From contig CAVQAC010000015.1 in NCBI GenBank assembly GCA_963710365.1, positions 496,125 through 560,124 on the forward strand: DNA of 64,000 nucleotides, read 5' to 3'. How positions within the stretch are numbered: the stretch's first letter is position 1; each line of letters starts with the position of its first letter. This stretch comes from an uncultured Planctomycetales bacterium. GTDB taxonomy: Bacteria > Planctomycetota > Planctomycetia > Pirellulales > PNKZ01. Position numbers and translations under genes: made by a program. Positions 11,623-61,545 of this stretch are shown one piece after another. The notes below the pieces were generated by a model. The model had not been told where the DNA came from and searched no databases. It saw only the letters and a program-made list of their open reading frames with translations.

Positions 11623-11657
11623 GCGATCGGTTGTTCCTGTAAGGCGGCGAGGCGGAC

Positions 11658-15229: not shown

Positions 15230-15237
15230 GGTTTCTG

Positions 15238-18200: not shown

Positions 18201-18560
18201 GACGTGAACATCTTTACGCAAATTGGTTTCGTCGTGCTGATTGGACTGGCCTGCAAGAATGCAATTCTGATCGTCGAATTCGCCAAGGCGCATCGCGAGA
18301 GCGGCGTGGCCCGTCGCGAGGCGACGCTGGAAGCCTGCCAATTGCGATTGCGGCCGATCGTGATGACATCGCTGGCATTCATTCTGGGGGTGGTGCCGCT
18401 GATGATTTCCGAGGGAGCTGGCGCCGAGATGCGTCGCACGCTCGGCACCGCCGTCTTCGGCGGCATGTTGGGCGTGACGTTGTTCGGCATTTTTCTGACG
18501 CCTGTGTTCTACTATGTCATCCAGTGGTTCGCTGATCGCCGAGAGTCCGGTGGCGGCTAA
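15238..18560 (+). CDS. RND multidrug efflux permease (AcrB/MdtC-like), copy 2, one frameshift near 17358
   Basis: TTG start gives '(M)FSRFFINRPIFASVLSIIITLSGG'. ORFs 15238..17424 and 17373..18560 join as '...DDFHHRAKSD/LTGDVVAAKLQAGLE...'. Confidence 0.9.
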
Positions 18561-18655
18561 GCAAGTGATATGTTGCTTGCAGCCGATCGACTGATTTGGT
18601 GCCGTAAGCTACAACGACGGGAAACCCCGTTTCATGCTTCAATACGCCGCTGGCA

Positions 18656-39598: not shown

Positions 39599-40891
39599 GC
39601 CCGCAGCTCCTTCACCACGCCAGTGCTGTCGCCATGACGTTCCGCTTCGATGCCGAGGCCGTGCAAGACTGTCAGCCAGGCATTGCACAGCGGCGTGCTC
39701 CGCGGCAACACGAGGTGCTGGCCAAGCTTGAGGCCCGCGCCCCGCCCTGCGAAAATCATCGGGCAGTTGTCGAGGTAATGGACCGTGCGAATGTTGCTGC
39801 CGTAGGCCAGCACCGTATGGTCGAGTAGCGAAGCTGCCGTCGGGCTCCTTGGTCGCTTTGAGCTTATCGAGCAGCCCGGCGAGCAACTCGCTCTGCGCCA
39901 CATCGCGACGCTGCGAAGCCTCGAGACGCTCGCCCGTCGTGTAATGGGTCATGTCGTGTGCGGCGATCTTCAGGCCGAGACTTCCCAGCAGCGTTCCCAC
40001 CGGTTGCCGATAAGTAATGACCCGCGTGGTGTCGGTCTGGAGCGCGACGACGATCAGGTCATACATGAGCTCGATCTCGTCGCGACCGGCGAGGCCAGGT
40101 TTCGGCTCGGTCAGCGAAGACTTCGCCTTTGGAATGGGGAGCCATTGCTCGTCCTTGGCGAGACGGGTCTCGATGTCGCGGACGCTTTGAAAGTATTCGT
40201 CGAGTTTGTCGGTGTCGGCTTTGTTGAGGCCGCGTTGCACACGTCGGGCATCGGCCAGCACGGCATCGAGCACGCTGCGCTTTTGCGCGAGCATGGCCTG
40301 CCGCTGAGCCAGCGGCACCGTCTCGTCGGAGAACAGGCGATGATAGGCGACCAGGGGATTCTCCATGCCCGCAAGCGGCTTGCCGCCGCGCGTCCCAGGC
40401 CAGCGAGAGGCCCGGGCCATGTCCGTTCGCCACGCCATCCGGGCTGCTCAACTGAATCGAGGCGAACCGCGTATCGGTCCCAAGTCGTTCGGCGACGACC
40501 TGATCGGCTGAGATGCTATTGTGAAAGCTCTGGCCTGGCTCCGCATAGCGGTTCGCCCCGGTGAGCCAGAACGTGCTGCCCCAGTGGGCTTCGTTGGCAA
40601 ACTTATTGGTGAGCCCCTGCACTACGGTGAAGTCCGCTTTGTGCCGCGCGAGCGGCGCCAGCCCTGGCGGAAGCGTGTAATCCGGCCCAGTCACTTTCGC
40701 GTCGGGCATCCACGTTTCCTCGCGTCACTCCCCAGCCAAAGCCCAGGAAGACGGCCCGCTTGGGCCGCGCTGCGGTGGTTGGCGGCAGCCGACGCAAAGC
40801 GACGGAAGCCGATGGATTCCAGCGCCGGCAGCGCGAGGATGCTGCCCGCCGCGCAGAGCAAATGGCGTCGACTAAGGCGGTTGGTTTTCAT
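39595..40891 (-). pseudogene. DUF1552-family Tat-signal protein (copy 1), at least 4 frame changes
   Basis: 'MKTNRLSRRHLLCAAGSILALPALE', 'PKRAVFLGFGWGVT', 'FTVVQGLTNK', '[11 protein letters not shown]' and 'LLDHTVLAYGSN' lie in different frames. The HxxSHH position reads 'HDMTHY'. Confidence 0.8.
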
Positions 40892-45690: not shown

Positions 45691-46761
45691 TCATTTCTCC
45701 TCGATCTTGGCAGCCAAGACGCGTTGGAGCAACTCGGAGAATTGTTTCATGGAAACCTCGCGCTGGCTGTCATGCTCGCTGTCTGCCCGATGCACGATGA
45801 CCAGGTCGCGTACAGGATCGACGACCAGGAATTGCCCGCGATTGCCGCGAGCTGAAAACACCGTGCCTGGAAAACGGACCTGAAAGTGCCATCCATCGAC
45901 GCCGACCCACCACAAGTAACCATAGCCGATCCCGTTGCCGGCACTGGAGTGCGCCGTCGTGCTTTGCTTAACCCAGTTCGCAGACACGATTCGGCGGTCC
46001 TGCCAGCGGCCCCCGCGGCTCATCAGCAGGCCAATGCGAGCCAGATCGCGTGCGGACAGACGCATGATGTACGCCGGATGATCGGAAACGCTTTCGTACT
46101 CCAGGCGCGTATCACGGCTGAGGTCGAAATCTTCGAACTCCAGCGGCCCGGCCAGGTCGTCGCGCAGGCCCTTGAAGACCGTCTTACCGCTGAACTTCTT
46201 GTAAATCGTGCCCAGGGCGTTGAAGTCCCAGTTGTTGTAGTACCAATGTTGACCGGGGGCGAAACTGCCGCGGGCGGGCCGCGCGGCTTTCATGGCGGTC
46301 GTTTCGTAGGCCGCCGGATGATAGATGCCCGAGCGAGCCTCGAGCAATTGTCGAACCGTTGCCTGTCGCTCGACGGCCGAGAGGCCACCTCGATCATCAA
46401 TGCCCAATTGAACGAGTGTCTTGCTTGGATCGACCTGGCCACGATCAAAACCGATGCCCATCAGCACGCTCAGAATGCTTTTTCGCATCGAGTGGATGTT
46501 CGTAGGGTGCGACGTGGCGCCGTACTGGTGGACGATCGTGCCTTGGTCGACGACCAGGTAGGCGTCCGTTTGCAGCGTGCGTGCGAAGTCATCAGCAGCT
46601 TTGAGCTTCTGGCCTGACCAACCGAAGTCCTCGGCCGACGAGGCCTTGTCCCATTTTGCTCCGGGGAACGTCTCGGCGGCGCCCAGCGGAATCGGTGTTG
46701 GAAAAAATCCCGCGTTGGTGCAAATCACCACCGCCAACAGCCAGCGAGTAATCGTCTTCAT
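45691..46761 (-). CDS. Serine hydrolase, beta-lactamase/transpeptidase-like
   Basis: ATG at 46761 gives signal 'MKTITRWLLAVVICTNA'. The SxxK motif is 'IHSMRKSILSVLMG'. 'YYNNWDFNALG' and 'GYGYLWWV' are present. Confidence 0.8.
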   Translation of the reverse strand: MKTITRWLLAVVICTNAGFFPTPIPLGAAETFPGAKWDKASSAEDFGWSGQKLKAADDFARTLQTDAYLVVDQGTIVHQYGATSHPTNIHSMRKSILSVLMGIGFDRGQVDPSKTLVQLGIDDRGGLSAVERQATVRQLLEARSGIYHPAAYETTAMKAARPARGSFAPGQHWYYNNWDFNALGTIYKKFSGKTVFKGLRDDLAGPLEFEDFDLSRDTRLEYESVSDHPAYIMRLSARDLARIGLLMSRGGRWQDRRIVSANWVKQSTTAHSSAGNGIGYGYLWWVGVDGWHFQVRFPGTVFSARGNRGQFLVVDPVRDLVIVHRADSEHDSQREVSMKQFSELLQRVLAAKIEEK

Positions 46762-46855
46762 GCTTTGAATCCTCGGAAGTCTATGCCTGTGCGAACAAGC
46801 AACGCCGTCGCGCCGCGAGCGAGTCCTCGGATGACGGCAATCGTGGGCGCCGTGC

Positions 46856-47761
46856 TCATGGCTTGGTTGGCGTGGCCCCGAGTGCGTGCTCCATGAACGA
46901 AAATGCAGGCGGCAGCCCCTGCTCGACCATCGGAAACGTGTGTCCGCCGTGCATGAGCAGCGTCTCAACGGTGAAACCAGCGGCGTGGGCGTCGGCGAGA
47001 AACGATTCATTCATTTGCCGCTCGGCGGCCTGGTCGGCATAGGCGGCGAAAAGCGTGGTGCCGCGTAGGCGCGCCATCAGGTGACGCGGATCGTATTTTT
47101 CCCACACCGCTGGGTCGGTGCCGAAGCGTGGCGGCACTTCGTAATTCTGCTTGGGATCCCCCACGACCGGGCGTGGGAAATCGATGAGCCCGATGACCGA
47201 CGCGACCGCCACGAAATCTCCGCTGCGGCGGCACGCCGTGTACATCGCGCCGTAGCCGCCCATCGACCAGCCGCCGATCGCCCGGCTGCGGGCGGTGCGG
47301 CTCACGGGGAAATGCTTTTCCGCGAGGGTGATCACTTCGTCGACGTAACCGCCGTAGCGCTCGCCGGGCATCACGGGCGAATCCATGTACCAGCCATCGC
47401 GGCCACGCGGCAGCACGACCGCGCAGGGCGACGCGAGCACGCGGGCCCGCGTCTTCTCGTTTTCAATAAGCGTGCGCTCGTGTCGGCCGCGGCCGTGGAG
47501 AAAGTAAATGGTGGGCAGCGGAGAGCTTTCACGCGTGGCGCCGGCGGGCAGCACGACGAGGAATCGCATCGGCAGATGCACCGCCGCACTGGTGAATTCG
47601 CAACTCCAAATGCGGTCTTCGACCACCGTGATGCGCGGAGTGTCGTCGGCGGATTGGGCAGTCACTGGAGCGGACACGAATACCCCGAGAATGAGCAACA
47701 GACTCACCGCGAATGTCCAGGTGGTCCAGTTTCGAAACAAGGCCGATTTCGCTTCGCTCAT
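46856..47761 (-). CDS. Esterase-family alpha/beta hydrolase, secreted
   Basis: ATG at 47761 gives a signal/TM segment. 'PTIYFLHGRGRHE' and 'RAIGGWSMGGYGAMY' (GxSxG) are present. Confidence 0.8.
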   Translation of the reverse strand: MSEAKSALFRNWTTWTFAVSLLLILGVFVSAPVTAQSADDTPRITVVEDRIWSCEFTSAAVHLPMRFLVVLPAGATRESSPLPTIYFLHGRGRHERTLIENEKTRARVLASPCAVVLPRGRDGWYMDSPVMPGERYGGYVDEVITLAEKHFPVSRTARSRAIGGWSMGGYGAMYTACRRSGDFVAVASVIGLIDFPRPVVGDPKQNYEVPPRFGTDPAVWEKYDPRHLMARLRGTTLFAAYADQAAERQMNESFLADAHAAGFTVETLLMHGGHTFPMVEQGLPPAFSFMEHALGATPTKP

Positions 47762-48076
47762 ATGCGTGGCTCTTGGGCCCAGTTTCTCGAATGGTACGTT
47801 GTGCGTTTTCAATCTTTGCTGCGTAATTCTTTAGACGGCCGACGCGGAGACCCGGCTTCTGCGGACGACCGGCAATTGCACATGCCGGAACTGCTGGCGA
47901 TTGTATTCCAGGATCTTCATGTTGGCGATCTGCCTGGCGTTCTCAAGAGGTCATTCATAAGTGATCATTGGACGCAAGGGGCTGCGGCAGCGACAATTGA
48001 TCCTGCGACTTTGGTCGCCGCCGCTATTTTTTTCCGGCGCAGGGTAACCTCGATGCGGTTGCTGCCATTGTATTCC

Positions 48077-48675
48077 ATGAGCGAACCTCTCAAGACTCCC
48101 GGCGACGACCTGGCAGACGACGTCTACCGGCAAGCTCAGGCGGGGGAGATGCAGGCCATCGAGGCTATCGTCCGGCATTATCAGCGGCCCGTCCGAGCGT
48201 GGCTGGCGGCTCATTGTCCGGTGGGGGGGATGCCGACGAGGTGGCACAGCGCACGTTCGTGGCGGCCATCACCAGAATCGCTGAATTCCAGGTCGGCACG
48301 AGCTTCGGCGCGTGGTTGTTCACGATCGCTCGCTATCAACAGATGACTGAAACGACGCGGTTGCGACGGTTGGCAGACTACCACGCTCGTCTGGCACCGA
48401 ACCTGCTCGCTCGAGAGCTGGAACGCCGCGCTTGCGAGCCGGACGAACCTACCGGCCAGCGGCTGCACTACCTGCGCGAGTGTCTGGCGGCCCTGGATGA
48501 ATCGGCGCGTCAGCTCATCGAGTGGCGGTACACGGCGGAGATTTCTTTGGAAGAGATGGCCGCACGCACCGGTCGCACGACGGGCGCCATCAAAAAACAG
48601 CTCTGGCTGCTCCGGCGAAAGCTTCAGGAGTGTATCGAAGGCAAGCTTGCCGTAGACCCGGGAGGCGCTTCATGA
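48077..48675 (+). CDS. ECF-type RNA polymerase sigma factor, frameshift in a G7 run (48223-48229)
   Basis: 'EAIVRHYQRPVRAWLAAHCPVGG' (end of ORF 47081..48346) continues as 'ADEVAQRTFVAAITRIAEFQVGTSFGAWLFTIARY' and 'EISLEEMAARTGRTTGAIKKQLWLLRRKL' (region 4 HTH) in ORF 48199..48675. Confidence 0.8.
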
Positions 48676-49706
48676 ACCCCGACGAACGTTTCGAAAAGCT
48701 CTGGACGGATTTCCTGGAGGGCGAGCTTTCACCGGCCGGCATCGCCGAACTGCAATCGCTGCTGGAAGATCAGCCGTATCTTCAGACCAAGGCGGGAGAT
48801 TTGCTGCAAACGCACCGCCTGATCAGCTTCGCCTTGCCGGAGGACGTGGCAACCGGCGAAGCGTTCGTCCAAGAGACGCTCGCCAAGCTCCCTCGAACGG
48901 AGGCAGATTTCCATGATGCCGTGATGCGCCGAGTGCAACGCGCCGCTCCCATCCGCGCCGAAGCCCGGTGGCCCACGTGGCGCCCGATGGCTGCAGCCTC
49001 GGCCGGAATACTCTTGGGCATCGCCTGCACGACGGCGGTGTTTGCATACGTCGTTGCCGCGCCGACCAAGGTAACGACTTTGTTGCAGGAAGGTTTCGAA
49101 ACAGGGCCTGCGCCCGGCGTGGTCGGCGCGCCGCTGGAACCGGGAGAGTGGAGCGGAGACTATTCCGAAATCGCTGGCCCCCAGTCCGGCGTGAAACCGG
49201 CCGGCGGCAGCCGAATGCTGCGGTTTCTGCGAGGCGATTATGAAAGAAGGTCAATACCGCAGAGTTTCGGCTGCGATGTCTCGCGGTTGATCGACGTTCG
49301 GCCGTATCGGCAGGAATTCGCCGACGGCGACGGGTTCGTGCGACTCACGGGGGTCTTTAACTCGGCGGCGTTTGCCGAGCAGGCGGAGTTCGAATGCACG
49401 CTGACGATTTTCGCGCTCGATGCCGAAGTCGTGAATGGTCGATCGTTGAGAATCGAGGGGACGCTCTCCGCCGAGTCGTTGGCCTATTCGCGCAGCAGCC
49501 GTATTGCGCTTGATCGCAATCCGGAAACCTGGCAGAAGGCGAGCAACGAACTGCGTCTACCGCCGAACACCGATTATCTGATGATCCGCGTCGGAGTTTC
49601 CGACGTCGCTCGACGCAAGGGCAAGCAGACGGCCGGCTTCACCGGACAATTCGCCGACCAGGTGCAGTTGGTCATCGCGCATCGTCCGGAGATTTCCGTG
49701 CCGTAA
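48672..49706 (+). CDS. Putative anti-sigma factor (single transmembrane segment)
   Basis: The ATG overlaps the sigma stop (ATGA at 48672-48675). The N-terminus 'ERFEKLWTDFLEGELSPAGIAELQSLLEDQP' is typical of planctomycete anti-sigmas. The TM segment is 'AAASAGILLGIACTTAVFAYVVA'. Confidence 0.6.
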   Translation: MNPDERFEKLWTDFLEGELSPAGIAELQSLLEDQPYLQTKAGDLLQTHRLISFALPEDVATGEAFVQETLAKLPRTEADFHDAVMRRVQRAAPIRAEARWPTWRPMAAASAGILLGIACTTAVFAYVVAAPTKVTTLLQEGFETGPAPGVVGAPLEPGEWSGDYSEIAGPQSGVKPAGGSRMLRFLRGDYERRSIPQSFGCDVSRLIDVRPYRQEFADGDGFVRLTGVFNSAAFAEQAEFECTLTIFALDAEVVNGRSLRIEGTLSAESLAYSRSSRIALDRNPETWQKASNELRLPPNTDYLMIRVGVSDVARRKGKQTAGFTGQFADQVQLVIAHRPEISVP

Positions 49707-49719
49707 CACGCGGGGGGCC

Positions 49720-52095
49720 ATGAACCTGAGTAATCCTTCCGTTCGAATCGATATGACACCTTTGTTTTCAAAAAATCTTGGCATTGGATTGGCCCTTTTG
49801 TGCTGCTGGGTTCAGGCTGTCGCGGCGGCGGAATCGGTCGATTTCGAGCGACAGGTTCTTCCGCTGCTCTATAACCGCTGTTTCAGTTGTCACAGCGAGA
49901 AGCAGGCCAAGCCGAAGGCCGATCTGCGGCTCGATTCGGCCGAGGGAATTCACAGCAGCGGAGTCCTGGATGTCGAGCATCCAGACGAGAGCGAATTGCT
50001 GATTCGCGTTTCACTGCCGCATTCGGACGAAGGATTGATGCCCCCCTTGAAAGGCGGCGGTCAACCGTTGAGCGACTCGGAACGAACGCTGCTTCGTCGT
50101 TGGATTGCCGACGGAGCGAAATTGGGCGCCTGGCGGCGTTTCGACCATCGCCAACCGGCGGTCGAGTACCGTGGCGATCCTCGCACGCGCGCCGATGTGC
50201 CGAAGTTGGCCCGTCGCGTGGATGAGCTGGTCGAGCAGTATCACCACTCTCACGGTTCCGCGTTGAATCCTGGCGTGAGTGATGAAGGCTTCTTGCGGCG
50301 CGTCTACCTCGACGTGGCTGGTCGGATTCCGAGTTTGGCTGAAACGCGGCAGTTTCTCGACAGCAACTCTTCTGACAAACGCGCCCGGCTGATCGATCGC
50401 TTGCTCGACAGCGAAGCCTACGTCAGTCACACCTTCAATTGGAAGGCGGATCAACTGCGGCTCGTTACCAAGGGATTTCCCGGCCAGCCCGGATATATGT
50501 ACGACGACTGGGTGAAGCAGTCGATACGCTCTGGCATGCCGTACGACGAATTTGTCCGCCGCCTGGTCAGCGCCCGTGGGCAGCTCTGGGAAAACGGAGC
50601 CGTGGGTTTTTATCTTCGTGATCTGGGCATGCCGTTGGATCATATGTCGAACATGGCGCGGATTTTCCTGGGTACACGGATTGAATGTGCTCAGTGCCAC
50701 GATCATCCGTTCGAGCCGATCACGCAAAAGGATTTCTATCAGCTCTCGGCCTATACGTTCGGAGTCTCGAATCTCTACACCTCCGTGGGGTTCTCCACCG
50801 ACAACGTGAAGCACTGGGGTGAACTCGTGGCGAAGTTGGATGCGATGAACGCTCCCAAGGCGCTGCGAGACTCCGTAAGCCAGACGGTCGCTCCGCTCAA
50901 GCGACTAACGAAAGACACCGAGCATCGACTGACGTTTCCAGATCACTATATGACGGATGCAGCAGACCGCGGAAAGCAAGTCGAGTTTCGCACGCTCTTC
51001 GGCGACGAAGCTCCGGCCACGGTCGAGAACCGCCGCGTCGTGCTGGCCAACTGGATGACGTCGCCGCGCAACCCGCGCTTTGTCCGCAATATCGCCAATC
51101 GATTGTCCAAACGCGTGCTGGGCGTGGGGCTGATCGAACCGGTCGACAGTCTATCGCCCGTCAATCGACCGGAGCAACCCGAACTACTCGATTTCCTTTC
51201 ACAGTCAATGGCGGAGCTTCGCTTCGATGAACGGGCCTTTCTCGCGGTTCTGCTCAACTCCCGGCTGTATCAAAGCGAAGCGGAGCGGAAGCAGCTAGAG
51301 CCGGGCGAAATGTACTCGCTGCGTGGTCCGCTGGTGCGGCGTCTTTCCGCCGAGCAGCTGTGGGATTCGCTGCTTGTCCTGCTGGTCGAAGATCTCGACG
51401 CGCGTAAGCCGCTGCCCCCCGACCGCGGCCCACTAGGCCGCGAACAGTTGGACAAACTGACCCATATGACGGCCGACGAACTGATGGAGCGCGCAAAAGT
51501 GATGATGGATTACCATGTCGCGCGACGCCGTCACAACATCGACCTGGAGAATCAAAAGGCCGCGTTGAAACTTGCCAAGGAAGCAGGCAACATTGCAGAG
51601 GTTCGCCGACTGCAAGAGGAGTACGCCAAGGCGAACGAACCGTTCGAGCAACTCCATCAGGCGCTACAGATGGGCGGACCTTCGACAGTCCACGAAACCG
51701 ATCCGCGTTGGGTGCGGATTTCTCCGGCGTTCGTGCGCGCTTCGGAATTCCCCACTCCGATTGCGACGGGACATTTTCTTCGGCAGTTCGGGCAGTCGGA
51801 CCGTCGCGAGATCGATGCCTTCAACAAGAATCCCAACATCACCCACGCGCTGGCGCTCATGAACGGGGAGCTGACGCAAAAGGCACTCGAAGCGGGATCG
51901 TACCTGCGGACCAGCTTACGTCCGGCGAAGACCGACGACGAGCGGGTGGAAGCCATCTACCAATCGATCCTCGTTCGCAATCCCACGGCCGACGAAACCA
52001 GCCAGTGCCTGGAATTATTTCCGGCCAGCCACAATCCGGAAGCGGATCTCATCTGGGCGCTGCTCAACACGCCCGAATTCCTCTTCATCCAATAG
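49720..52095 (+). CDS. PSCyt/DUF1549/DUF1553-type protein with CxxCH motif
   Basis: Intact 791-aa ORF. A signal peptide is followed by 'LLYNRCFSCHSEKQAKPKADLRLD'. 'FLRRVYLDVAGRIPSLAE', 'CAQCHDHPFEP' and the C-terminal 'DLIWALLNTPEFLFIQ' are present. Confidence 0.9.
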   Translation: MNLSNPSVRIDMTPLFSKNLGIGLALLCCWVQAVAAAESVDFERQVLPLLYNRCFSCHSEKQAKPKADLRLDSAEGIHSSGVLDVEHPDESELLIRVSLPHSDEGLMPPLKGGGQPLSDSERTLLRRWIADGAKLGAWRRFDHRQPAVEYRGDPRTRADVPKLARRVDELVEQYHHSHGSALNPGVSDEGFLRRVYLDVAGRIPSLAETRQFLDSNSSDKRARLIDRLLDSEAYVSHTFNWKADQLRLVTKGFPGQPGYMYDDWVKQSIRSGMPYDEFVRRLVSARGQLWENGAVGFYLRDLGMPLDHMSNMARIFLGTRIECAQCHDHPFEPITQKDFYQLSAYTFGVSNLYTSVGFSTDNVKHWGELVAKLDAMNAPKALRDSVSQTVAPLKRLTKDTEHRLTFPDHYMTDAADRGKQVEFRTLFGDEAPATVENRRVVLANWMTSPRNPRFVRNIANRLSKRVLGVGLIEPVDSLSPVNRPEQPELLDFLSQSMAELRFDERAFLAVLLNSRLYQSEAERKQLEPGEMYSLRGPLVRRLSAEQLWDSLLVLLVEDLDARKPLPPDRGPLGREQLDKLTHMTADELMERAKVMMDYHVARRRHNIDLENQKAALKLAKEAGNIAEVRRLQEEYAKANEPFEQLHQALQMGGPSTVHETDPRWVRISPAFVRASEFPTPIATGHFLRQFGQSDRREIDAFNKNPNITHALALMNGELTQKALEAGSYLRTSLRPAKTDDERVEAIYQSILVRNPTADETSQCLELFPASHNPEADLIWALLNTPEFLFIQ

Positions 52096-52106
52096 GATCG
52101 CGCCCG

Positions 52107-53381
52107 ATGCGAACCATGCAGACCGAAATCTCACGTCGCCGTTGGATCGAGGCCTTTGCCAGCGCGTGCTGCGGCGTCAGCTTGTTGGGATGGCCCCCGG
52201 CAGCGTTGGCGGACTCGCGCCGGCGGCCGAAGGCCCAGAGTGTCGTCTATCTTTACCTGCGCGGCGGGATCTCGCACGTCGATACCTTTGATCCCAAGCC
52301 AGGCAAGCCCGAGATGGCCGGCGTGCAGGCGATCGGCACCAGCGCCGCGGGCGTGCAAATCTCAGAATGGTTTCCGCAAACCGCGAGGCAAATGCACCAT
52401 ATCTCGTTGGTTCGCTCGATGACCTCGACACAAGGTGTTCACGAGCGGGGCAATTACTTGGCACACACCAGTTATTACCAAACGCCGACGATCGCGCATC
52501 CGGCGCTCGGCGCTTGGGCCTTGAAGCAATTGGGGTCGACCAATCCCCTGCTGCCCGGGAACATCCTCATCAATGGCAGCCCTCAGCATCCCGGCAGCGG
52601 TTACATGGAGTCGCATTTGGCGCCGCTGCCGATCGTTGATCCTGCCGCCGGGTTGCAGAACTCCGCGTTCAGTCGCGACACCACGGAGATCGATTTCGTT
52701 CGCCGCTCGCAACTCGTTCAGTCGCTAGGAACCCGTTTTCTTGCCCGCACGCCCCATCGTTCGGCCGCGGCCTACGACAAGATTCGTGCCAAGGCCGTCG
52801 AGCTGATGAAGAGTCCGGATTTGCGGGCCTTCGACATCAGTCAGGAGAGCCCAAAAACGCAGGAGGCTTACGGAACGCATACTTTTGGCCAGGGGTGTTT
52901 GCTGGCGCGACGACTCATCGAGCACGGCGTGCGGTTCATCGAGGTTGAAGACGATCAGAACTGGGATACCCACAACGACCAACTCGTCTCCATGCAGCGC
53001 ATGACGCCCTCGGTCGATCAGACGTTTGCGGCGCTCCTCGACGATCTTCACCAGCGCGGGCTGCTGGACTCAACGCTGGTCGTGATGGCCACCGAGTTCG
53101 GTCGGACGCCGCAGATCAGCGAAGTCACTGCCGGCCGCGGGCATCATCCCGCCGTGTTCACCTGGTGGGTCGCCGGCGGAGGCATGAAGGGGGGCTATGT
53201 TTACGGCAAGTCCGACGCCACCGGTGAACGAGTTGCCGACCGCCCCGTGAACATGCCCGACTTCAACGCCACGATCGCCCAGGCACTGGGGATCGATTTG
53301 GAGAAAGTCGAGCATTCTCCCTCCGGGCGTCCGTTCACGATAGCCGACAAAGGTCGGCCCCTTGCTGATCTGTTCGCATAA
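52107..53381 (+). CDS. DUF1501-family protein (sulfatase-like fold), Tat signal
   Basis: ATG at 52107, 11 nt after the upstream stop. 'ISRRRWIEAFASAC' is a Tat-type leader. 'VVYLYLRGGISHVDTFDPKP', 'WDTHND' and 'VVMATEFGRTP' are present. Confidence 0.9.
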   Translation: MRTMQTEISRRRWIEAFASACCGVSLLGWPPAALADSRRRPKAQSVVYLYLRGGISHVDTFDPKPGKPEMAGVQAIGTSAAGVQISEWFPQTARQMHHISLVRSMTSTQGVHERGNYLAHTSYYQTPTIAHPALGAWALKQLGSTNPLLPGNILINGSPQHPGSGYMESHLAPLPIVDPAAGLQNSAFSRDTTEIDFVRRSQLVQSLGTRFLARTPHRSAAAYDKIRAKAVELMKSPDLRAFDISQESPKTQEAYGTHTFGQGCLLARRLIEHGVRFIEVEDDQNWDTHNDQLVSMQRMTPSVDQTFAALLDDLHQRGLLDSTLVVMATEFGRTPQISEVTAGRGHHPAVFTWWVAGGGMKGGYVYGKSDATGERVADRPVNMPDFNATIAQALGIDLEKVEHSPSGRPFTIADKGRPLADLFA

Positions 53382-53466
53382 TCTATTCGGAGTGCCAATA
53401 AGTTCCCGGAACCAAGAGCGACATGCTTGCCCAGGAAATTCTGGCCAAGATCCGGCATCAGGCAGG

Positions 53467-54717
53467 CTAATGCGGCTTTGCCTGCGGGGGCGGGGTGTCG
53501 CGATCGGCCACCGGTTTGGGGCCGACGTGGAAAATCCGAGTGTCGTTAGGCCAGAGCTCCAATTCGCGCGGGCGCGGCGGCGGGTTCCAGTCTCGCAGCG
53601 CGAGCAGGATCGTTCTTCCACCGCGAAAGCCTTCGAGCATCTCGTAAAGATGCATCCGTATTTCGACGCCGCTGTGGCCCGGCGGCGGGGCCTCGATTCG
53701 CGTGACGCTACTCACCGTGCCCGAGACAGAACCGTCCCATCCGCGCAGGCTGGGTTCGGCCGCCCAGATCGTGACCAAGGTATTGGCCTTGAAGGCATCG
53801 ACCAGTTCCGCTTCGATTCCGGCGGGAAAGGCGAACGTGACGTAACCGCGAGCACCCGCTCCAGGCATCGACTCGGTTTTGAGGACGATGGCGGGCAGAC
53901 CGCTACGTTTCAACTGGGCGATGTGGATCTGCCGCTGCTGCTCGGTCGCGACTCTGCGGCTCGCCGCGTCAATCCAGATTTCGCGGCACAGGCCGTCTTC
54001 CTTGGTAGAGCCCAACAGCGTGGCCCAGGTGAGATTGAGCTGAACGATCTGTCCTTGGGCGAGATCCTCGACCGAGGCAATCTCGCGGCCTTTCCAAATC
54101 CGCACGCCGCGGTCGAGTCGCAGCGTTTGCGTGGCCTCGACGCCGTCGTCGGTGTCTGTCACCGCGGCGCCATCGGTCAACTCGACGCGCTCGAAGGTGA
54201 CGGTGGCCTTGTCGGCTCCAAACGCGGCCAGTTTCCAGCCTTCGCCGCGCCGCTGGTGATAACTGAAGTCGTCCTCAAAACGGAGCACGCGCGAGTATTG
54301 CGAAACCACGGAGCGGAGATCAGGCGCGGCCATTCTGCTGGCGAAGTATCCGCTCTCGGGCGGCACAACCTTGAAATCGCCCTCGGGGCCGAGGTAGAAG
54401 ATGCCGTGCAGATGCGTGCCCAGCGGGAGGTCGCCCAACTCAACTCCAGCGCCGTGGTAGGTGATGTCCGCATAGGGCAGCATTTGAAAATGGTGTGGCA
54501 AATCCCAGTAGTATTTGTTGATTGTGCCATCGCGGTCCGGGCGCAGGATGCCGCGGCGATTCACGTGCTCGACGAGGATCAGCTCGCCTGCGAATCGTTT
54601 ACCCGCATTTGCCACCGGAAACACACCGTCGAGCGCGATGCGCCCGTCCGTCGGATCTGCCGCGTGCAATGGCGGGCTGGCAGCGATGAGCAAGGCGATC
54701 AAAAGCAGGATGCGCAT
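53467..54717 (-). CDS. Secreted hypothetical protein, third gene of the DUF1592-DUF1552 operon
   Basis: ATG at 54717 lies 4 nt after the DUF1552 stop. The signal is 'MRILLLIALLIAASPPLHA'. 416 aa, no recognised family. Confidence 0.65.
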   Translation of the reverse strand: MRILLLIALLIAASPPLHAADPTDGRIALDGVFPVANAGKRFAGELILVEHVNRRGILRPDRDGTINKYYWDLPHHFQMLPYADITYHGAGVELGDLPLGTHLHGIFYLGPEGDFKVVPPESGYFASRMAAPDLRSVVSQYSRVLRFEDDFSYHQRRGEGWKLAAFGADKATVTFERVELTDGAAVTDTDDGVEATQTLRLDRGVRIWKGREIASVEDLAQGQIVQLNLTWATLLGSTKEDGLCREIWIDAASRRVATEQQRQIHIAQLKRSGLPAIVLKTESMPGAGARGYVTFAFPAGIEAELVDAFKANTLVTIWAAEPSLRGWDGSVSGTVSSVTRIEAPPPGHSGVEIRMHLYEMLEGFRGGRTILLALRDWNPPPRPRELELWPNDTRIFHVGPKPVADRDTPPPQAKPH

Positions 54718-54721
54718 GGGC

Positions 54722-56092
54722 CTAACCCTCCAATTGCGAGATCGTCTGTAAGCTGTCGGCAAATGCGGGCGTTTCCACGTCCATCTTCTGCGCGAGAGTG
54801 AGCAGCAGGTTGCTGAAGCGTGCCCGGTCGTTCACGGGCGCGAGCAGATCTGGTAATGCGAGGTCTTCAGCGCTCCCTGTTCGTCGAGGGCGTAACCGTC
54901 GAAATGTCCCGCGTTGAAGTCGATGTGACTGCCATGTTTCAAGCCGAGCGCGCGGCCACCGGCCACGACGGTGGGGAGATTCGCATTGCCGTGACTGTGG
55001 CCGTAGGCCATGCCGCTGCCGTAGAGAGCCACGGTCAGGTCCAGCAGCGGTGTGTCGCCATCGTGCGTTTCGGCCAGGCGATCGAGGAAGTAGGCGAAGT
55101 GCTCGAAGTTGAAGGCATCGCTCTGCGTGAGGCGGTCCAACTGGTCGGGGTCGCCGTTGTGATGCGAGAGGGCGTGCCGGGTCTGGTTGATGCCGAGTTC
55201 GGGAATCGGCAGGCCTTTGCCTTCGTCGCCCGAACTGAATGTGATCACGCGGGTGGTGTCGGTTTGCAAGGCCAGGATCATCAGGTCGTAGAAAGTGCTG
55301 AAGTAATCGCTGGGTTTGGTTTGCGGAACGTCGCGCGTCAGGTGGCGGCGGACGGCGTCCGGCACTTGAGGACGCGGCACGTCGAGCCAACCATCGGCAC
55401 GTTCAGTTCGGATTTCCACCTCGCGGACCGAGGTGAGGTATTGATCCAGCCTGCCGCGATCTTCGCTGCCGATCTTGCGATCCAGCGCCTCGCGCTTCGC
55501 CGAGTACCGCGTCGAGCACGCTGCCGCGCCGACGCAGCGTCTCGCGCTCCTTGCCCACGCCGCCGTCCGGCGCTTCGAACAGACGGCGAAACACGTCGCG
55601 TGGCTTGGTCTCGGCAGGCAGGCCGATGCCACCGGCGGTGAAGGCAAGCGACCGGCCCGTGTCGCTCAGCTCCAACGAGGCAAAGCGAGTGTGCGCCGCC
55701 AGCTTTCCGGCGATCAATTGGTCCAGGCTGATGCTGTTGCGTTTTCCCTGGCCAATCTCGGCCCCGGTCAGCCAGATGCTCTGGCAGTCGTGATGATGCC
55801 CGAGCCCATTGGGATGATGCAGCCCCGAGATCGGCGTGATGTTGGCGCGATGTCGCTCGAGTGGTTTCAGCCCGCGGCTGAAGCGATAGTCTGGCCCGGC
55901 GTCCAGGATCTGATAGTCGAGCGTGTTCACACCGTTGGGTAGATAGACGAACACGCTGCGCTTGGCCTTCGGCGCAGCCGGCGCGGCCAACAATGGACGC
56001 ATGCAATTCAGCATGGGAAGGGCGATGGAGACACCCAGGCCGCGCAGCACGTGGCGCCGACTCAGCAGCCAGGATTGCTTAAGAACGTTCAT
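54722..56092 (-). CDS. DUF1552-family Tat-signal protein (copy 2), two frameshifts (~55500, ~54875)
   Basis: '[20 protein letters not shown]', '[11 protein letters not shown]', '[11 protein letters not shown]', '[11 protein letters not shown]' (HxxSHH) and '[12 protein letters not shown]' are spread over ORFs 55403..56092, 54832..55647 and 54722..55390. Confidence 0.85.
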
Positions 56093-56133
56093 GGTTTTTC
56101 AGCTCGTGCGCTCGATGGCTGGCAAGGGGTGGG

Positions 56134-58576
56134 TTAACGTCTTCGGAACAACTCTGAGGCGACGAAGGCATCGATGAGGTCACGCAGTCGGTAGCCGTGG
56201 TCGCGGGTTTGCCGAACGATCAAGTTGATGGCTGCTTCGTCTTCCAGGGTTATCGACCGTCGCAAGGCATACACGGCAAGCTTGCCCGTGAAGGCGCGAG
56301 CAAAGACTTCCGGCTTCGCCGCGAGCAATCGCTTGAAATCAGCGGCATCGGCAAAGCGGCGCCCGTCGGGAAGCTGGCCGCTGGCATCGACGGGTGGGTT
56401 GGCGCCTTTGCCTGCCAGGACAACTTCTTCCGTGCGCCAGCGGCCGATGGCGTCGTAGTTGTCGAAAGCCAGGCCCAGTGGATCGATCTTGGCATGGCAG
56501 GCAGCGCAATTCGCGTTGGCTTTGTGTGCGGCCAGCTTCTGGCGAATCGTAGCCTTGGGTTCGTTCACGGGGTTCGGCTCAATCGCGCTGACATTCGGCG
56601 GTGGCGGCGGAGGCGTCTTGCCAAAGACCGTTTGCGAGACCCACACCCCGCGATGCACGGGCCGGTGCCGCGTTCCGTCGGAAGTCAACGACAGCACGGA
56701 CGCCTGCGTGAGAATGCCTCCCCGATGCTCCTGGGGCTGCAGGACGACGCGCTCAAAGCCGCCACTGGCCGGCGGTTCTAGTCCATAGTGCAGCGCCAGT
56801 CGCGGATTGAGCATAGTCCAATCCGATTCGAGGAATTCGACCAGCGGAAGGTTTTTGCGGAACATTTCGGCGAAGTAATGCGTGGTCTCGAGGACCATGC
56901 TCTGCTCCAGCCAGTCGTCGTAGTCGGGGTAGAGTTTCGGATCCGGCGGAAAAGCTCCGACTCTCTTTAACTGCAACCATTGCCGCGGAAAGGATTCAGT
57001 AAACCTCGCGATCTTCGGATCGGCCAGCATGCGCGCGGCCTCGGCTCGCAGACCCTCGCGATCGTGCAATCTGTCATCCATCGCGGCGGCCAACAGATTC
57101 TCGTCTGGGCCGGAGCTCCACAGAAAAAACGACAGGCGCGAGGCCAATTCTTGATCATTCAACAGCGTGCGATTTTCGCCCGGCGAACCTTCCGCAATGT
57201 AGGCGAAATTCTTCGAGGCGAGCAGGCCCACCAGGGCAGTCCTGTACGCCACGCGAAAGGATGACTCGCGCCGCCAGTTCGCGCGAGACGATCGTCGCAT
57301 AAGGGCGGATTTCTTCCTCGGTGACGGGTCGGCGCCAGGCGCGCTGGGCGAAGCGCGTGAGGCAGGCCAGCACGTCCTCGGTACTCGCGTTGTCGGCGGG
57401 AAACAAGCCTGAGCGCTTACGCACGTCGTCCGGTTTCTCCAGCGGCCCTTGCCAGTCGATCCAATCGAAGATAAGCAACGGATAGAGCGGCCGGCCTTCG
57501 TCGTCGGTCATCTTGCGCTGCCAGGGCGCGCGGGATTTCGGATCGTTGAGTGTGGTGAACACAAAACCGCCCGGCCGGCCCGAGCGCGGCGCGTTCGAGG
57601 GGCCGGGTACCGCGTTGTTGATCGCGATGTCGAACTTGCCGGCCGGCAAAAATGTCTCGAACTCCAACACCACCGGCTTGTCCTCCGACGCGAGGACATC
57701 GGCCTCGAAGATCATGCGGTCCAATTCGGGAGAATACAGGCTGACGTGCGGCGACCGCCCGCCGGTCGGCCTCAGCCCGCTCAACTGCATCCTTGCCCGA
57801 TACAGCCCCGACGCCTGCCGGTAACCCGGATCGGGACGCAGGAAAGAAAGTTGCAGCCCGGGCCACATGAGCATGCGAATCCTGGGAGTGATGCCGATCC
57901 AATCCAGCTCTTTGCGTTTATCGCCATTCTGCCAGTCGATGGTCAGGGCATCGCGGTGGGTTTTGACTTGAAACGGCTTCGAGTCTGGAAATGCCTGATC
58001 GATAATCTCCGCGGCGGCTTTGAGGTATTGCTCGACGTGCGACGGCGACAGCGATAGTTCACTCCCCAGCCGCTCGATTCCCTGCCAATTCGGATCTTCC
58101 GCGAATGCACCGGGTGCGCGGGTGTCGTATCGCACGCCGAGGAGATCATACACGGCGTGCGAGTATTCTTCCCGGCTCAACCGGTAGTGGCTCACCGGCG
58201 CGCGTTTGGCCATGCGAGCGGCTTCGCCTTCCTTGATCCGCGCGGAGAGCCACTCCATCACTCGGCCAGACGCTTCGGCGGTGGGCTGCGGTTCATCTTC
58301 CGGTGGCATCTCTCCCGCGCCGATTCGCGTGATCACCTCGATCCAGCGCTCGGCCGCTGAACCGCCCGCGAAATCACGAGTCAGCGCATCCAGCCGCAGA
58401 TCTGCCTTGTGCTCGTCCGGGCCATGACAACGCAGGCAGTGCTTTCGCAAATAAGGCTCAACCGTTTCCGCAAACCCTGGCGACGCGTCCGCGGCAGCGA
58501 AGACTGTGCTCGTCAACGGGCAAGCGAGCACAAGGCTCAGCAGCACAATGGCTCGAATCAGCGGCATCGGATTCAT
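56134..58576 (-). CDS. DUF1592-group multidomain protein with CxxCH N-terminus (copy 2), one frameshift near 57270
   Basis: A signal peptide is followed by 'YLRKHCLRCHGPDEHKADLRLD'. 'GAGEMPPEDE', 'YRLSREEYSHAVYDLLGV', 'ELASRLSFFLWSSGPDENLL' and 'CAACHAKIDPLGLAFDNYDAIGRWR' are present. ORFs 57155..58576 and 56134..57300 join as 'SRELAA/ESSFRVAY'. Confidence 0.85.
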
Positions 58577-58770
58577 CTTCGAGGCGGGCGGCAGGCGGGC
58601 ACCGAGGGAAAGTGCATTTTAACTGGGCGTGCCGCCTCGGTATAGCGACGGTCAAGTCTCGAATTTGCTTGCTATCCGTACTGCCCGCGGATAGGCTTAG
58701 GTTCGCTCGCGCTTTCGGAAGACAAAGTGAATAGCACCCCGGCCCATCCGGGTGGCTCGTCAATGAGTAA

Positions 58771-58819
58771 GCCGACGTGGTAGAGCACCTTTTGGTGTTC
58801 TGCCACGTCGGCTTTTTTT
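58771..58819 (+). terminator. Strong rho-independent terminator, plus-strand specific
   Basis: A 19-bp stem (58771-58789 pairs with 58794-58812) needs only two G.U wobbles in the plus-strand RNA. The loop is UUUU and a U7 tract follows at 58813-58819. The minus-strand RNA would have A.C mismatches and no U tract. Confidence 0.8.
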
Positions 58820-58968: not shown

Positions 58969-61545
58969 ATGTCTAAGTCCAATCGCTGGGCGCGGGCCAC
59001 TGGGCTCGTCGTCGTATTCACATCGTTCGCGTGGGCGACAGCTTGCGCAAACGCGGAAGAGGTCGGGTTCGTGCGAGCAGCCTCGGGCGGAATCGGCGGG
59101 GATGCGAACACCGCTCGGCCGGGCAAGGCCTTCACGTTCGTCAAACCTGGCGGCGAGACGTACTTTGCAATCAGCCTGACTCCGAATGTCGCTCGGCCAG
59201 CTGCCGTAGCACAAGATATTCTGGTGATGTTCGATACGTCGGCCAGCCAGGCAGGCGATTTCCGCGATAAGGCGCTCGGCGCATTGCAATCGTTCCTGAC
59301 CGGCTTGGGCTCGAACGACCGCGTGAAGATCGTGGCTGTCGACTTGCAAACGATCGAACTCACCAAAGGGTTCGTCGCTCCCGGCAGTGCGCAGGCGCAG
59401 CAAGCGCTGTCGCAATTGCGCGAGCGGGTTCCCTTGGGCTCGACCGACCTGGAACTGGTGCTCGAGGCGGCCGCCGACAGTTTCGCGCATGCGCCCCCGG
59501 GGCGTGGTCGCGCCGTGGCATATATTGGCGACGGCATGAGCACCGCCCGGTTGATTCCCAATAGCCGTATGCAGCAGTTGGTTGATCGACTGGTCAGCGA
59601 ACAAGTATCGGTCGACAGCTACGCCGTCGGCCCGCGGTTGGACAACATTTTGCTCGGAGCACTCGCGAATCACACGGGCGGAATGCTGCTCGTCGATACC
59701 GAGAATTGGAATGCGAAACAGGTGGGCCTGTTGCTGGCCTCGAGCGTGAAAGAACCGGTTTTATGGCCGCAGCAGGTGCAGCTTCCGCCGAGCCTGGCCG
59801 ACGTCTATCCACGCCGGCTGCCGCCCTTGCGATTTGATCGCGATACGATTCTGATCGGCCGCGGCAAGGAACAGCCGACCGGAACGGTTCAAGTGATGGC
59901 CGAATCCAGTGGCCAGGAATTGCCGATGAGCTGGCAGCTTGCGCCGCAGAAGCCGAGCGACGACAACGCATATTTGGCCGATTTGGCCGCAAGCAGCCAG
60001 CGCGACGGCGGCTTGGGATTGCCTCTGGTCGGCAGCGCCGGACTGGTCGAGATGCGGCGCTTGGTGCGCATGGAAGGTCGTGCCCTGGTGCGATTGGGCC
60101 AGCAGGCCGTGGCCACCGGAGCGCTGGATCAGGCTGAAACGTTGGCCGCCCAGGCGCTGAAACTCGACTCCGGCGATCCCGAGGCTTTGGCCATTCGCAA
60201 TGCCGTGTCGAAAGCCCGTAAATCCGCGTTGCGCGGCCCAGGTCGCGAGCTGAAATTGGTGAATTTCCAGGCATCCGGCGAATTGCCGCCCGCTCAGACC
60301 GCCGCCGAGCAGGCCACGACGGCCCCCGCCGACGGCGATTTCCTCAACCAGGTTGAGCAGCAAAATCGCGTCCTGTCCGGTGCTCTGCAAGCCGAAGTGC
60401 AAAACGCTCTGAACCAGTCCCGCAACATGATGGGGACCAGTCCCGAACAAGCCATGAACACTCTGAAGCTGGAGTTGGAAAAGGTCCGGCAAGCTCCGGA
60501 ACTCAGCCCCGAACTGCGGCTGCAACTCGTCGCGCAGTTGGAAACGGCCCTACGTTCGGCCAGCCAGCAGGCCGTGGTCGCCGCCGATCGCAGTCTGAAG
60601 CAGCAGGAGATCCAGGCCGAGAGCGAAGCCCAACGGCAACTGGTGCGAGACCTGTTCGCGAAGGAGGACAAGGTCACGCAACTCATGGAACGCTTTAATG
60701 CGTTGATGGACGAAGGCCGGTATCTTGATGCCCGCAACGCCGCGGAATTAGCCCGCGATAATTCGCCGCACCGTGTGGGGCCGCAGGAAGCCGCCTTGAC
60801 CGACGCGCCAATCGAGGCTGCTCAGGTGAATAATATCACGTTCGCCTACGCAAACCGCGAAGCGCACCGCACTGGTTTCCAGAGCATGTTGATGTCGATC
60901 GAAAAGGCCGGAACCCTGTTGGTGGACGATCCCCCGGTGGTGTACCCGGATCCCGAGGTCTGGAAATTGCTCACCGAGCGCCGCGAGAAGTACAAGAGTG
61001 TCGACCTGGCGCGGAACAATCCGGCCGAAGTAAAGATCGTCAAGGCGCTGGATGAAACGACCGAGCTCGACAACATCCAGGAAATGCCGCTAACCGACGT
61101 CATCGACTATCTCAAGACGAAGCACAGCATCGAGATCCAGTTGGATAGCAAGGCCCTGGAAGAGGCCGGCGTGGCGCTCGATACGCCCATTACTCGCAAC
61201 TTGCGGGACATTACGCTGCGTTCCGCGTTGCGATTGATGCTGCGTGAACTCGACCTGACCTACGTGATTCGCGACGAAGTGCTGCTGATCACCACCAGCG
61301 CTGCGGCTGAAACCATCATGACCTCGAAGGTCTACCCGGTGGCCGACCTGGTGATCCCGATCAAAAACCAGGGAATGAGCGGCTTTGGCGGGCTCGGTGG
61401 CCAGGGCGGCGGCATGGGGATGGGCGGCGGCATGGGCGGCGGTGGCATGGGTGGCGGTGGCATGGGCGGTGGCATGGGAGGTGGCATGGGCGGCGGTGGC
61501 GGCATGTTTGCCGTTCGCGATGCCCTGAAGCCCTCATCCAAGTAA
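58969..61545 (+). CDS. Large secreted VWA-domain protein with C-terminal Gly/Met-repeat tail
   Basis: The signal is 'LVVVFTSFAWATACANA'. The MIDAS-type block is 'ILVMFDTSASQAG'. A long helical middle is followed by the block 'PLTDVIDYLKTKHSIEIQLDSKALEEAGVALDTPITRNLRDITLRSALRLMLRELDLTYVIRDEVLLITT', then 'GGMGMGGGMGGGGMGGGGMGGGMGGGMGGGGGMF'. Confidence 0.8.
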   Translation: MSKSNRWARATGLVVVFTSFAWATACANAEEVGFVRAASGGIGGDANTARPGKAFTFVKPGGETYFAISLTPNVARPAAVAQDILVMFDTSASQAGDFRDKALGALQSFLTGLGSNDRVKIVAVDLQTIELTKGFVAPGSAQAQQALSQLRERVPLGSTDLELVLEAAADSFAHAPPGRGRAVAYIGDGMSTARLIPNSRMQQLVDRLVSEQVSVDSYAVGPRLDNILLGALANHTGGMLLVDTENWNAKQVGLLLASSVKEPVLWPQQVQLPPSLADVYPRRLPPLRFDRDTILIGRGKEQPTGTVQVMAESSGQELPMSWQLAPQKPSDDNAYLADLAASSQRDGGLGLPLVGSAGLVEMRRLVRMEGRALVRLGQQAVATGALDQAETLAAQALKLDSGDPEALAIRNAVSKARKSALRGPGRELKLVNFQASGELPPAQTAAEQATTAPADGDFLNQVEQQNRVLSGALQAEVQNALNQSRNMMGTSPEQAMNTLKLELEKVRQAPELSPELRLQLVAQLETALRSASQQAVVAADRSLKQQEIQAESEAQRQLVRDLFAKEDKVTQLMERFNALMDEGRYLDARNAAELARDNSPHRVGPQEAALTDAPIEAAQVNNITFAYANREAHRTGFQSMLMSIEKAGTLLVDDPPVVYPDPEVWKLLTERREKYKSVDLARNNPAEVKIVKALDETTELDNIQEMPLTDVIDYLKTKHSIEIQLDSKALEEAGVALDTPITRNLRDITLRSALRLMLRELDLTYVIRDEVLLITTSAAAETIMTSKVYPVADLVIPIKNQGMSGFGGLGGQGGGMGMGGGMGGGGMGGGGMGGGMGGGMGGGGGMFAVRDALKPSSK
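61381..61506 (+). repeat. Imperfect tandem GGC/GGT-ATG repeats encoding the (G3-5M)n tail
   Basis: Repeated 'ggcggcatggg' and 'ggtggcatggg' units with a period of 12-15 nt lie inside the VWA gene. Confidence 0.8.

Follow-up and report, generated by a model that had tools for sequence, protein, structure and literature searches.

Do three copies of a cytochrome-motif gene paired with a gene for an exported partner, lying within about 22 kb of one another and beside a sigma factor gene, work as one regulated unit, or are they independent modules? The question is raised by a 64,000-nt stretch of DNA (the window) from an uncultured Planctomycetales bacterium (assembly GCA_963710365.1, contig CAVQAC010000015.1, positions 496,125 to 560,124), in which a preliminary description had recognized three such modules and an extracytoplasmic function (ECF) sigma/anti-sigma pair, and had read them as a functional island. 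We favor a different reading, to which we assign a probability of roughly 0.6: the region comprises three copies, two of them working-looking and one heavily broken, of the module known from the Planctomycetes-Verrucomicrobia-Chlamydiae (PVC) group, in which a PSCyt protein is joined by a partner exported through the twin-arginine translocation (Tat) pathway; the two working-looking modules are independent of each other; and the insertions and deletions (indels) that interrupt their genes are most likely assembly errors. In planctomycetes and verrucomicrobia, few families of unknown function are larger than PSCyt, DUF1501 and DUF1552, which reach tens of copies per genome and have gone unexplained since 2004; the gene pairs of the window are ordinary examples of them.

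Module 1 is a four-gene operon encoding an ECF sigma factor, an anti-sigma factor, a PSCyt1-PSCyt2-PSD1 protein and a Tat-exported DUF1501 protein. It comprises the following features.

48043-48069, plus strand: promoter-like motif GGTAACC-N9-TTGCTGCCATT, found by pattern scan, ending 7 nt before the sigma ATG
48077-48675, plus strand: ECF sigma gene of family TIGR02989 (the Rhodopirellula/Verrucomicrobium family), assigned by Pfam and NCBIfam, with a frameshift in the G7 run at 48223-48229
48672-49706, plus strand: anti-sigma-like protein, 344 aa, single-pass, described from its ATGA overlap with the sigma stop, AlphaFold2 and Foldseek
49720-52095, plus strand: 791-aa protein with a Sec signal and the order PSCyt1-PSCyt2(DUF1549)-PSD1(DUF1553) by Pfam; intact open reading frame (ORF)
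52107-53381, plus strand: DUF1501 protein, 424 aa, with the twin-arginine leader SRRRWI (Pfam E = 9e-104)

The genes are tightly packed: the anti-sigma ATG at 48672 overlaps the sigma stop codon (ATGA), 13 nt separate the anti-sigma-like gene from the 791-aa gene, and 11 nt separate the latter from the DUF1501 gene. The 13 nt before 49720 are too short to hold a promoter. The 791-aa protein has an N-terminal hydrophobic segment and two CxxCH motifs, at residues 54 and 323 (CAQCH at 323), and its architecture, its adjacency to the DUF1501 gene and the twin-arginine leader of the DUF1501 protein are those of the PSCyt2/PSD1 + DUF1501 module. The anti-sigma-like family (166 database matches) was sampled at eight distinct loci (L083, L084/85, L086/87, L088, L090, L091, L092 and L093), and at all eight the sigma gene lies directly upstream of the anti-sigma gene. 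The full order of sigma, anti-sigma, PSCyt1/2/PSD1 and DUF1501 genes recurs at five of them (L083, L084/85, L091, L092 and L093); downstream of the sigma/anti-sigma pair, L086/87 has a PSCyt3-type gene, a DUF1552 gene and a gene for a leucine-rich repeat (LRR) protein, and L088 and L090 have other secreted or glycoside-hydrolase genes. Related loci are often neighbored by genes for sulfatases, BNR sialidases, glycoside hydrolases and SASA proteins.

As sequenced, the sigma reading frame is not intact, being one base short in the G run at 48223-48229. Its C-terminal part contains the sigma-2 and sigma-4 regions (Sigma70_r2 and r4_2 in Pfam) and scores 115.6 bits, under the curated TIGR02989 cut-off of 124.55 bits. 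Addition of one G to the G7 run yields a sigma factor of 199 aa, equal in length to the intact one of L083 and alignable with it throughout; the repaired protein covers model positions 2-158 and reaches 127.8 bits.

The motif GGTAACC-N9-TTGCTGCCATT occurs once in the window, where 0.02 chance matches are expected. Over 89 fetched loci, the strict pattern was found only before the homologous sigma genes of L083, L086/L087 and L088. A looser pattern, scanned after four further loci had been added, gave an additional match at the sigma start of L093, together with four more matches in three loci of the module 2 type (L016, L020 and L035), which we take as background. On inspection by eye, the copies in L083 and L093 are nearly identical and keep the 7-nt spacing; those in L086, L088 and L091 are looser. 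The distance from motif to start codon is exactly 7 nt at three loci (window 48070-48079, L083 662-671, L093 ~5398-5407); at L093 the called TTG start falls within the motif, and the likelier start is a GTG located 7 nt downstream of it. A motif that ends 7 nt before the start codon would imply leaderless sigma mRNAs. From its sequence and position, GGTAACC-N9-TTGCTGCCATT is probably an autoregulated ECF promoter, lying directly before the sigma gene and driving transcription of the whole four-gene operon as an mRNA that is leaderless or nearly so. Because the gene order recurs and a promoter-like motif precedes the sigma gene, module 1 is very probably under the control of its adjacent ECF sigma factor, in line with the earlier proposal that at least one unit is under ECF control.

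The anti-sigma-like protein matches no Pfam domain, anti-sigma domains included, and no NCBIfam family. It has one hydrophobic segment (residues 105-132), and its AlphaFold2 model (pLDDT 85) consists of helices over residues 3-91, followed by a transmembrane helix (109-127) and, over residues 135-337, a beta-sandwich. In a Foldseek search of the PDB, the beta-sandwich came closest to Fbs1, in its sugar-binding domain (E = 4e-9), and to the carbohydrate-binding module (CBM) family CBM22 (E = 5e-7), along with CBM16 and CBM15; for these sugar-binding folds, E ranges from 4e-9 to 6e-4 and the TM-score, normalised to the target, from 0.47 to 0.68, and CBM22, CBM16 and CBM15 are xylan-binding modules. 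As modeled, the protein looks like a membrane anti-sigma factor whose helical N-terminal part is linked by a single transmembrane helix to a CBM-like outer domain. This predicted CBM-like outer domain is a new point of the present analysis.

Module 2 lies on the opposite strand and comprises three genes.

56134-58576, minus strand: PSCyt1-PSD3-PSD5-PSD4-PSCyt3-PSD2 gene, 813 aa after repair, assigned by Pfam on two pieces and by tblastn
54722-56092, minus strand: DUF1552/HXXSHH gene, 456 aa after repair, with the twin-arginine leader SRRHVL, assigned by Pfam and by alignment to L001
53467-54717, minus strand: F416, a 416-aa signal-peptide protein of an unannotated family; intact, modeled with AlphaFold2

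Gaps of 41 nt and 4 nt separate the PSCyt3-type gene from the DUF1552 gene and the DUF1552 gene from F416, respectively. The PSCyt3-type protein carries CxxCH motifs at residues 47 and 690 (CAACH at 690), and, like the 791-aa protein of module 1, it has a signal-peptide-like N-terminus. The characters of the PSCyt3 + DUF1552 module were found on the gene pieces, and the orthologous pair in L001 is intact.

The ORFs, quoted peptides and gaps listed for modules 1 and 2 in the preliminary description are all present, including the overlap of the sigma stop with the anti-sigma ATG. Its family assignments and domain order agree with Pfam, both Tat leaders are where it placed them, and the 416-aa protein that it could not assign to a family has no Pfam or NCBIfam match. 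It was right about the N-terminal CxxCH motif of each large protein and missed the second one (residues 323 and 690). The sigma, PSCyt3-type and DUF1552 genes, which it had taken as intact, are each broken by single-base frameshifts.

F416 turned out to have numerous relatives (251 database matches, 455 in species-representative genomes and, when profiles were searched exhaustively, 536 clusters at 50% identity). Eighty genomic loci were fetched around F416 homologues, and these form the set for all counts of gene triads and flanking modules. At 65 of the 80, genes for F416, DUF1552 and PSCyt3-type proteins stand on one strand within 6 kb, in the order PSCyt3-DUF1552-F416 at 47 loci and permuted at 18; most of the 15 loci without the full triad are interrupted by contig ends. 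The triad partners belong to a specific subfamily, being 50-90% identical to the reference, as compared with ~30% for other PSCyt3/DUF1552 pairs in the flanks, and percent identity to the reference is correlated among the three proteins (r = 0.93-0.96, 60 loci). No conserved fourth gene was found beside the triad in the fetched loci, and the region upstream of module 2 shows scant conservation with its orthologs past the last ~60 nt. The cassette is hosted by Planctomycetota and Verrucomicrobiota, with single loci labeled Abditibacteriaceae and Poribacteria. Together, the gene order and correlated identities indicate that module 2 is an independent three-gene cassette whose genes have been inherited together across phyla. 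The F416 triad is likewise a new point of this analysis, and no mention of this third partner was found in the searchable literature.

The AlphaFold2 model of F416 (pLDDT 86.6) is all-beta and built of small barrels, and the invariant residues include H51, a GTHLHG stretch and E148-D149-D150 (EDD). A Foldseek comparison of the model with the PDB gave small-barrel fragments only (TM-score below 0.2, no E below 1e-3), and a search of the PDB with its sequence gave no match. Taken further, the PSCyt3-type, DUF1552 and F416 proteins may form a distinct three-component periplasmic system in which F416 would serve as a dedicated subunit for handling metal or substrate, and the cassette may travel whole among Planctomycetota, Verrucomicrobiota, Abditibacteriota and Poribacteria; we hold this proposal tentatively, at somewhat less than even odds.

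Longer members of the family include P0063 and P0077 (714 aa), P0361 (774 aa), and P0392 and P0400 (~725 aa). In some, a right-handed beta-helix region (PF13229, with borderline scores) is fused at the C-terminus, and others contain two full copies or carry several repeats of the C-terminal half. At L086/L087 (7424-14454), a sigma/anti-sigma pair is followed by a PSCyt3-type + DUF1552 pair and then by an LRR protein in the place of F416, which suggests that the third gene of such cassettes is exchangeable.

How far modules 1 and 2 can be called working-looking depends on the nature of their frameshifts. Breaks in module 2 were placed by reference to L001, an intact orthologous locus of a Pirellulales metagenome-assembled genome (82% nucleotide identity). 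In the PSCyt3-type gene, tblastn and a DNA alignment with L001 put a frameshift of +1 nt within PSD5, near 57262-57264, and the DUF1552 gene has +1 nt near 55488-55490 and -1 nt near 54835-54838 (alignment to L001), with Pfam positions 1-180 and 176-307 on two different frames. If these frameshifts and that of the sigma gene were real, the three genes would be recent pseudogenes, module 1 would have lost its activator and module 2 would be as dead as module 3. The indels are, after all, present in the given sequence, and module 3 shows that the lineage can carry decayed copies; moreover, a long homopolymer is found at the sigma break only and at none of the other breaks, which leaves room for real mutations.

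Against genuine decay, single breaks of the same kind interrupt unrelated genes elsewhere in the window, pointing to a sequence-wide error process. A codon-usage ORF scan followed by Pfam (a frame plot based on third-position GC content, GC3, was too noisy) located an HlyD-type gene split between two frames (10544-11622), two AcrB-type RND pump genes (11643-15229 and 15250-18560) and a GFO_IDH_MocA oxidoreductase gene (18656-19997), in each of which the Pfam coordinates continue over the break. The split genes at 10544-19997 point to indels being frequent all through this assembly, at roughly one per few kb. Single-base repair leaves no in-frame stops: the repaired PSCyt3-type protein has 813 aa, as compared with 812 aa for the intact L001 ortholog, and the repaired DUF1552 protein (456 aa) is 90% identical to its intact ortholog. 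Measured against intact orthologs, the ratio of nonsynonymous to synonymous substitution rates (dN/dS) comes to 0.158 in the PSCyt3-type gene and 0.087 in the DUF1552 gene, values below that of the unbroken F416 neighbor (0.175), and the sigma break amounts to the loss of one base from a G8 run, a classic long-read error. Because like breaks split unrelated genes and the broken genes are under strong purifying selection, the interrupted sigma, PSCyt3-type and DUF1552 genes most likely reflect assembly errors, and we regard recent pseudogenization as improbable. Programmed frameshifting was considered as well and rejected, since the breaks are scattered over unrelated genes and share no slippery motif. 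More generally, the frequency of frameshifts makes gene-decay arguments from this assembly unsafe.

Module 3 is a different case, and consists of two remnants.

39595-40891, minus strand: DUF1552-like remnant with the Tat leader SRRHLL and HDMTHY at the HxxSHH position; at least four frame switches
36936-39598, minus strand: PSCyt3-type remnant; at least six frame switches, one of them inside the N-terminal CxxCH

In tblastn searches with the L086 DUF1552 protein, the first of these aligns at 56-61% identity in three frames, with two further frame switches in its first 200 nt; with the L086/L087 PSCyt3-type protein, the second aligns at 33-73% identity in alternating frames. The closest fetched relative of module 3 is accordingly the PSCyt3-type + DUF1552 pair of L086/L087. 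Module 3 has at least ten frame switches over 36936-40891, and its earlier description as a pair in the order DUF1552, then PSCyt3-type, is upheld.

We then return to the initial question. Co-regulation of all three modules by the dedicated ECF sigma factor, as one functional island, would be in keeping with their location within ~22 kb, and the closest fetched relatives of module 3 (L086/L087) do follow a sigma/anti-sigma pair of the same family. Extra PSCyt-type modules occur within flanks of up to 10 kb at 23 of the 80 F416 loci, or ~3.1 per 100 kb, which is about three to four times an estimated genome average of ~0.8 per 100 kb. That average is our own estimate and takes 41 PSCyt2/PSD1 copies, a guessed ~20 PSCyt3-type copies and a genome of ~7 Mb, the approximate genome size of Rhodopirellula baltica. 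Forty-one is the number of PSCyt2/PSD1 copies in R. baltica (PMC2754498).

The remaining evidence speaks against an island. Modules 1 and 2 lie on opposite strands and point toward each other across 85 nt, and six unrelated genes (PQQ-like propeller, LMWPc-like, DUF1543, SGL/NHL propeller, beta-lactamase-family and esterase) separate modules 3 and 1. The promoter motif is single in the window: with two mismatches allowed, there is none near module 2 or module 3, and only background matches elsewhere. In the closest relatives (L001/L003/L004), the module 2 cassette is set among an integrase gene, a Peptidase_C2 gene and PIN/ABC genes, and in L083 the module 1 operon is followed by sulfatase and methyltransferase genes; module 1 was not found beside the cassette in L001/L003/L004, nor the cassette beside the operon in L083. 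Module 3, finally, is broken in at least ten places. Chance plays no part in the reality of the genes, but it does matter for the clustering of three modules. A rough Poisson estimate gives two extra modules in ~20 kb at ~13% of such loci, and the per-locus list has two or more at about four of the 80. We thus attribute the presence of three modules in 22 kb to the density of paralogs. The three modules are not a conserved island, and a functional island under one sigma factor is most unlikely.

Next, we consider what the independent modules may do. Each pair looks, from its signal sequences, like a secreted unit of a Sec-signal CxxCH protein and a Tat-signal, enzyme-like partner, which is how the preliminary description had interpreted them. 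Alignment of DUF1552 with DUF1501 by hhalign gave a probability of 97.5% (E = 6.5e-12) over 361 columns spanning both proteins, which indicates that the two families are homologous, a further new point of this analysis. A search of the PDB with the DUF1501 profile returned 20 weak hits (E = 0.014-0.95), 17 of them to sulfatases and one to LtaS; the sulfatase and LtaS hits all fall on one C-terminal conserved region, corresponding to the sulfatase metal-site region. The formylglycine motif C/S-x-P/A-x-R is absent from the DUF1501 protein and the repaired DUF1552 protein. These weak hits suggest that DUF1501 and DUF1552 may be distantly sulfatase/alkaline-phosphatase-like, without the formylglycine motif.

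In a working model, a glycan-type ligand outside the cytoplasm would bind the anti-sigma factor and release the sigma factor, which would then induce its own operon. The Sec-exported heme-motif protein and the folded, metal-loaded Tat partner, joined in module 2 by F416, would act together in the periplasm on substrates that may be carbohydrate-derived, and the heme domains would couple the reaction to electron transfer.

The last step in particular has a competitor, in which the large PSCyt proteins are not electron carriers but capture substrates for, or scaffold, a hydrolytic Tat enzyme, with CxxCH binding metal or forming disulfides. PSCyt1 alone resembles a cytochrome c domain, and weakly so, at 23.7 bits against Cytochrome_CBB3, under the Pfam cut-off of 27 bits; the Tat partners resemble hydrolases rather than oxidoreductases; and carbohydrate-binding and protein-interaction domains are fused to proteins of this kind (PMC3542564, PMC5615132). 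On the other side, 67 of 68 PSCyt3-type orthologs retain both CxxCH motifs, and Tat export suits a partner loaded with a cofactor. CxxCH is, moreover, the canonical attachment site of c-type heme. We therefore consider a purely non-carrier role unlikely, and retain electron transfer by the heme domains as the preferred, if provisional, assumption.

Several results weigh against the reading of the region given at the outset, in addition to the scarcity of homopolymers at the breaks. The density of breaks in module 3 is several times that in the rest of the window, so module 3 may be truly decayed. The promoter-like motif is absent from three of nine related loci. The beta-sandwich fold of the anti-sigma-like protein is a generic binding fold that also binds proteins, in Eph and MAM domains. 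The 'cytochrome' label of PSCyt2 and PSCyt3 derives from the CxxCH motif and nothing else, the DUF1501 hits to sulfatases are weak, and the DUF1552 profile found nothing relevant in the PDB. In the literature, no experimental function was found for these families, and the chemistry proposed here is one that we infer. Two working-looking, independent modules beside a heavily broken one remain our preferred account.

If the three-component system with F416 proposed above, at somewhat less than even odds, exists, then together with the homology of DUF1552 and DUF1501 it would unite the modules into one large class of 'heme protein + alkaline-phosphatase-like enzyme' machines, which would have exchangeable accessory subunits and a glycan-sensing ECF switch. 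The F416 cassette, the homologous Tat partners, the sugar-binding-like sensor and the precise candidate promoter offer experimental handles.

A few other elements of the window deserve mention. A very strong terminator-like hairpin at 58770-58813 (plus strand; 20-bp stem followed by T7, with an A-run on the other side) lies between the start of module 2 (58576, minus strand) and a VWA gene (58969, plus strand); there is no plus-strand gene upstream of it, and it matches no tRNA or Rfam family. The VWA gene (58969-61545, plus strand) is divergent from module 2 and encodes a signal-peptide protein of 858 aa that has a VWA_3 domain and ends in GGMGGG-type Gly/Met repeats. An intact gene for a membrane H+-translocating pyrophosphatase (H_PPase, E = 3.5e-179) is found at 33113-35290 (minus strand). 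The beta-lactamase-family ORF at 45691-47010 (minus strand) is extended so far at its N-terminus that it runs into the end of the esterase ORF upstream (46856-47812, minus strand), and its true start is probably at an internal MKTITRWLL signal peptide, ~85 codons in.

How do these modules compare with known systems? DUF1501 proteins encoded with PSCyt1/PSCyt2/PSD1 modules, bearing Tat and signal peptides, and a hypothesis of electron transport were reported by Kamneva et al. 2012 (PMC3542564), and He et al. 2017 (PMC5615132) counted up to 71 DUF1501 genes per genome and suggested a role in carbohydrate use. Module 1 resembles this PVC module (PMC3542564; Group II of He et al., PMC5615132) in its domain order, the adjacent DUF1501 gene, the twin-arginine leader, the signal peptide on the cytochrome-motif protein and the many paralogs per genome; it differs in that its subgroup has its own sigma/anti-sigma pair in front, and otherwise in nothing essential. 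Module 2 corresponds to Group III of He et al. (PMC5615132 Text S1, Fig. S7b), with PSCyt1-PSD3-PSD5-PSD4-PSCyt3-PSD2 beside DUF1552, but has F416 as a constant third gene, and both of its known genes are frameshifted here.

With regard to regulation, Wecker et al. 2009 (PMC2754498) cite Studholme et al. 2004 for regulation of the PSCyt2/PSD1 protein RB10051 by the ECF sigma factor RB10049, which is stress-induced in R. baltica (PMC2754498). The two systems share a TIGR02989-family sigma gene directly upstream of a PSCyt2/PSD1 gene, as its proposed regulator; what the present analysis adds is a description of the intervening anti-sigma factor, with its predicted CBM-like outer domain, and a candidate promoter, likewise a new point. 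The PSCyt2/PSD1 + DUF1501 and PSCyt3 + DUF1552 pairings and the link to an ECF sigma factor are already published, and the unit and ECF control put forward in the preliminary description essentially restate published hypotheses (PMC3542564, PMC5615132 Text S1, PMC2754498).

Compared with sulfatases and the alkaline phosphatase superfamily, the Tat partners share the weak DUF1501 profile matches and a periplasmic location. They differ in their conserved residues (GGxSH, WDxH, EFGR and GRDH in DUF1501; HxxSHH and GHSHGN in DUF1552), in lacking the formylglycine motif and in being paired with a cytochrome-motif protein. The SorAB sulfite dehydrogenase combines a Tat-exported catalytic subunit with a c-type cytochrome subunit. 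Two-subunit oxidoreductases of this type have no sequence or fold relationship to the modules described here, in which the catalytic subunit would be alkaline-phosphatase-like rather than a molybdoenzyme; the likeness is an analogy only, in that a Tat-exported subunit bearing a cofactor would be combined with a Sec-exported heme c subunit encoded by an adjacent gene.

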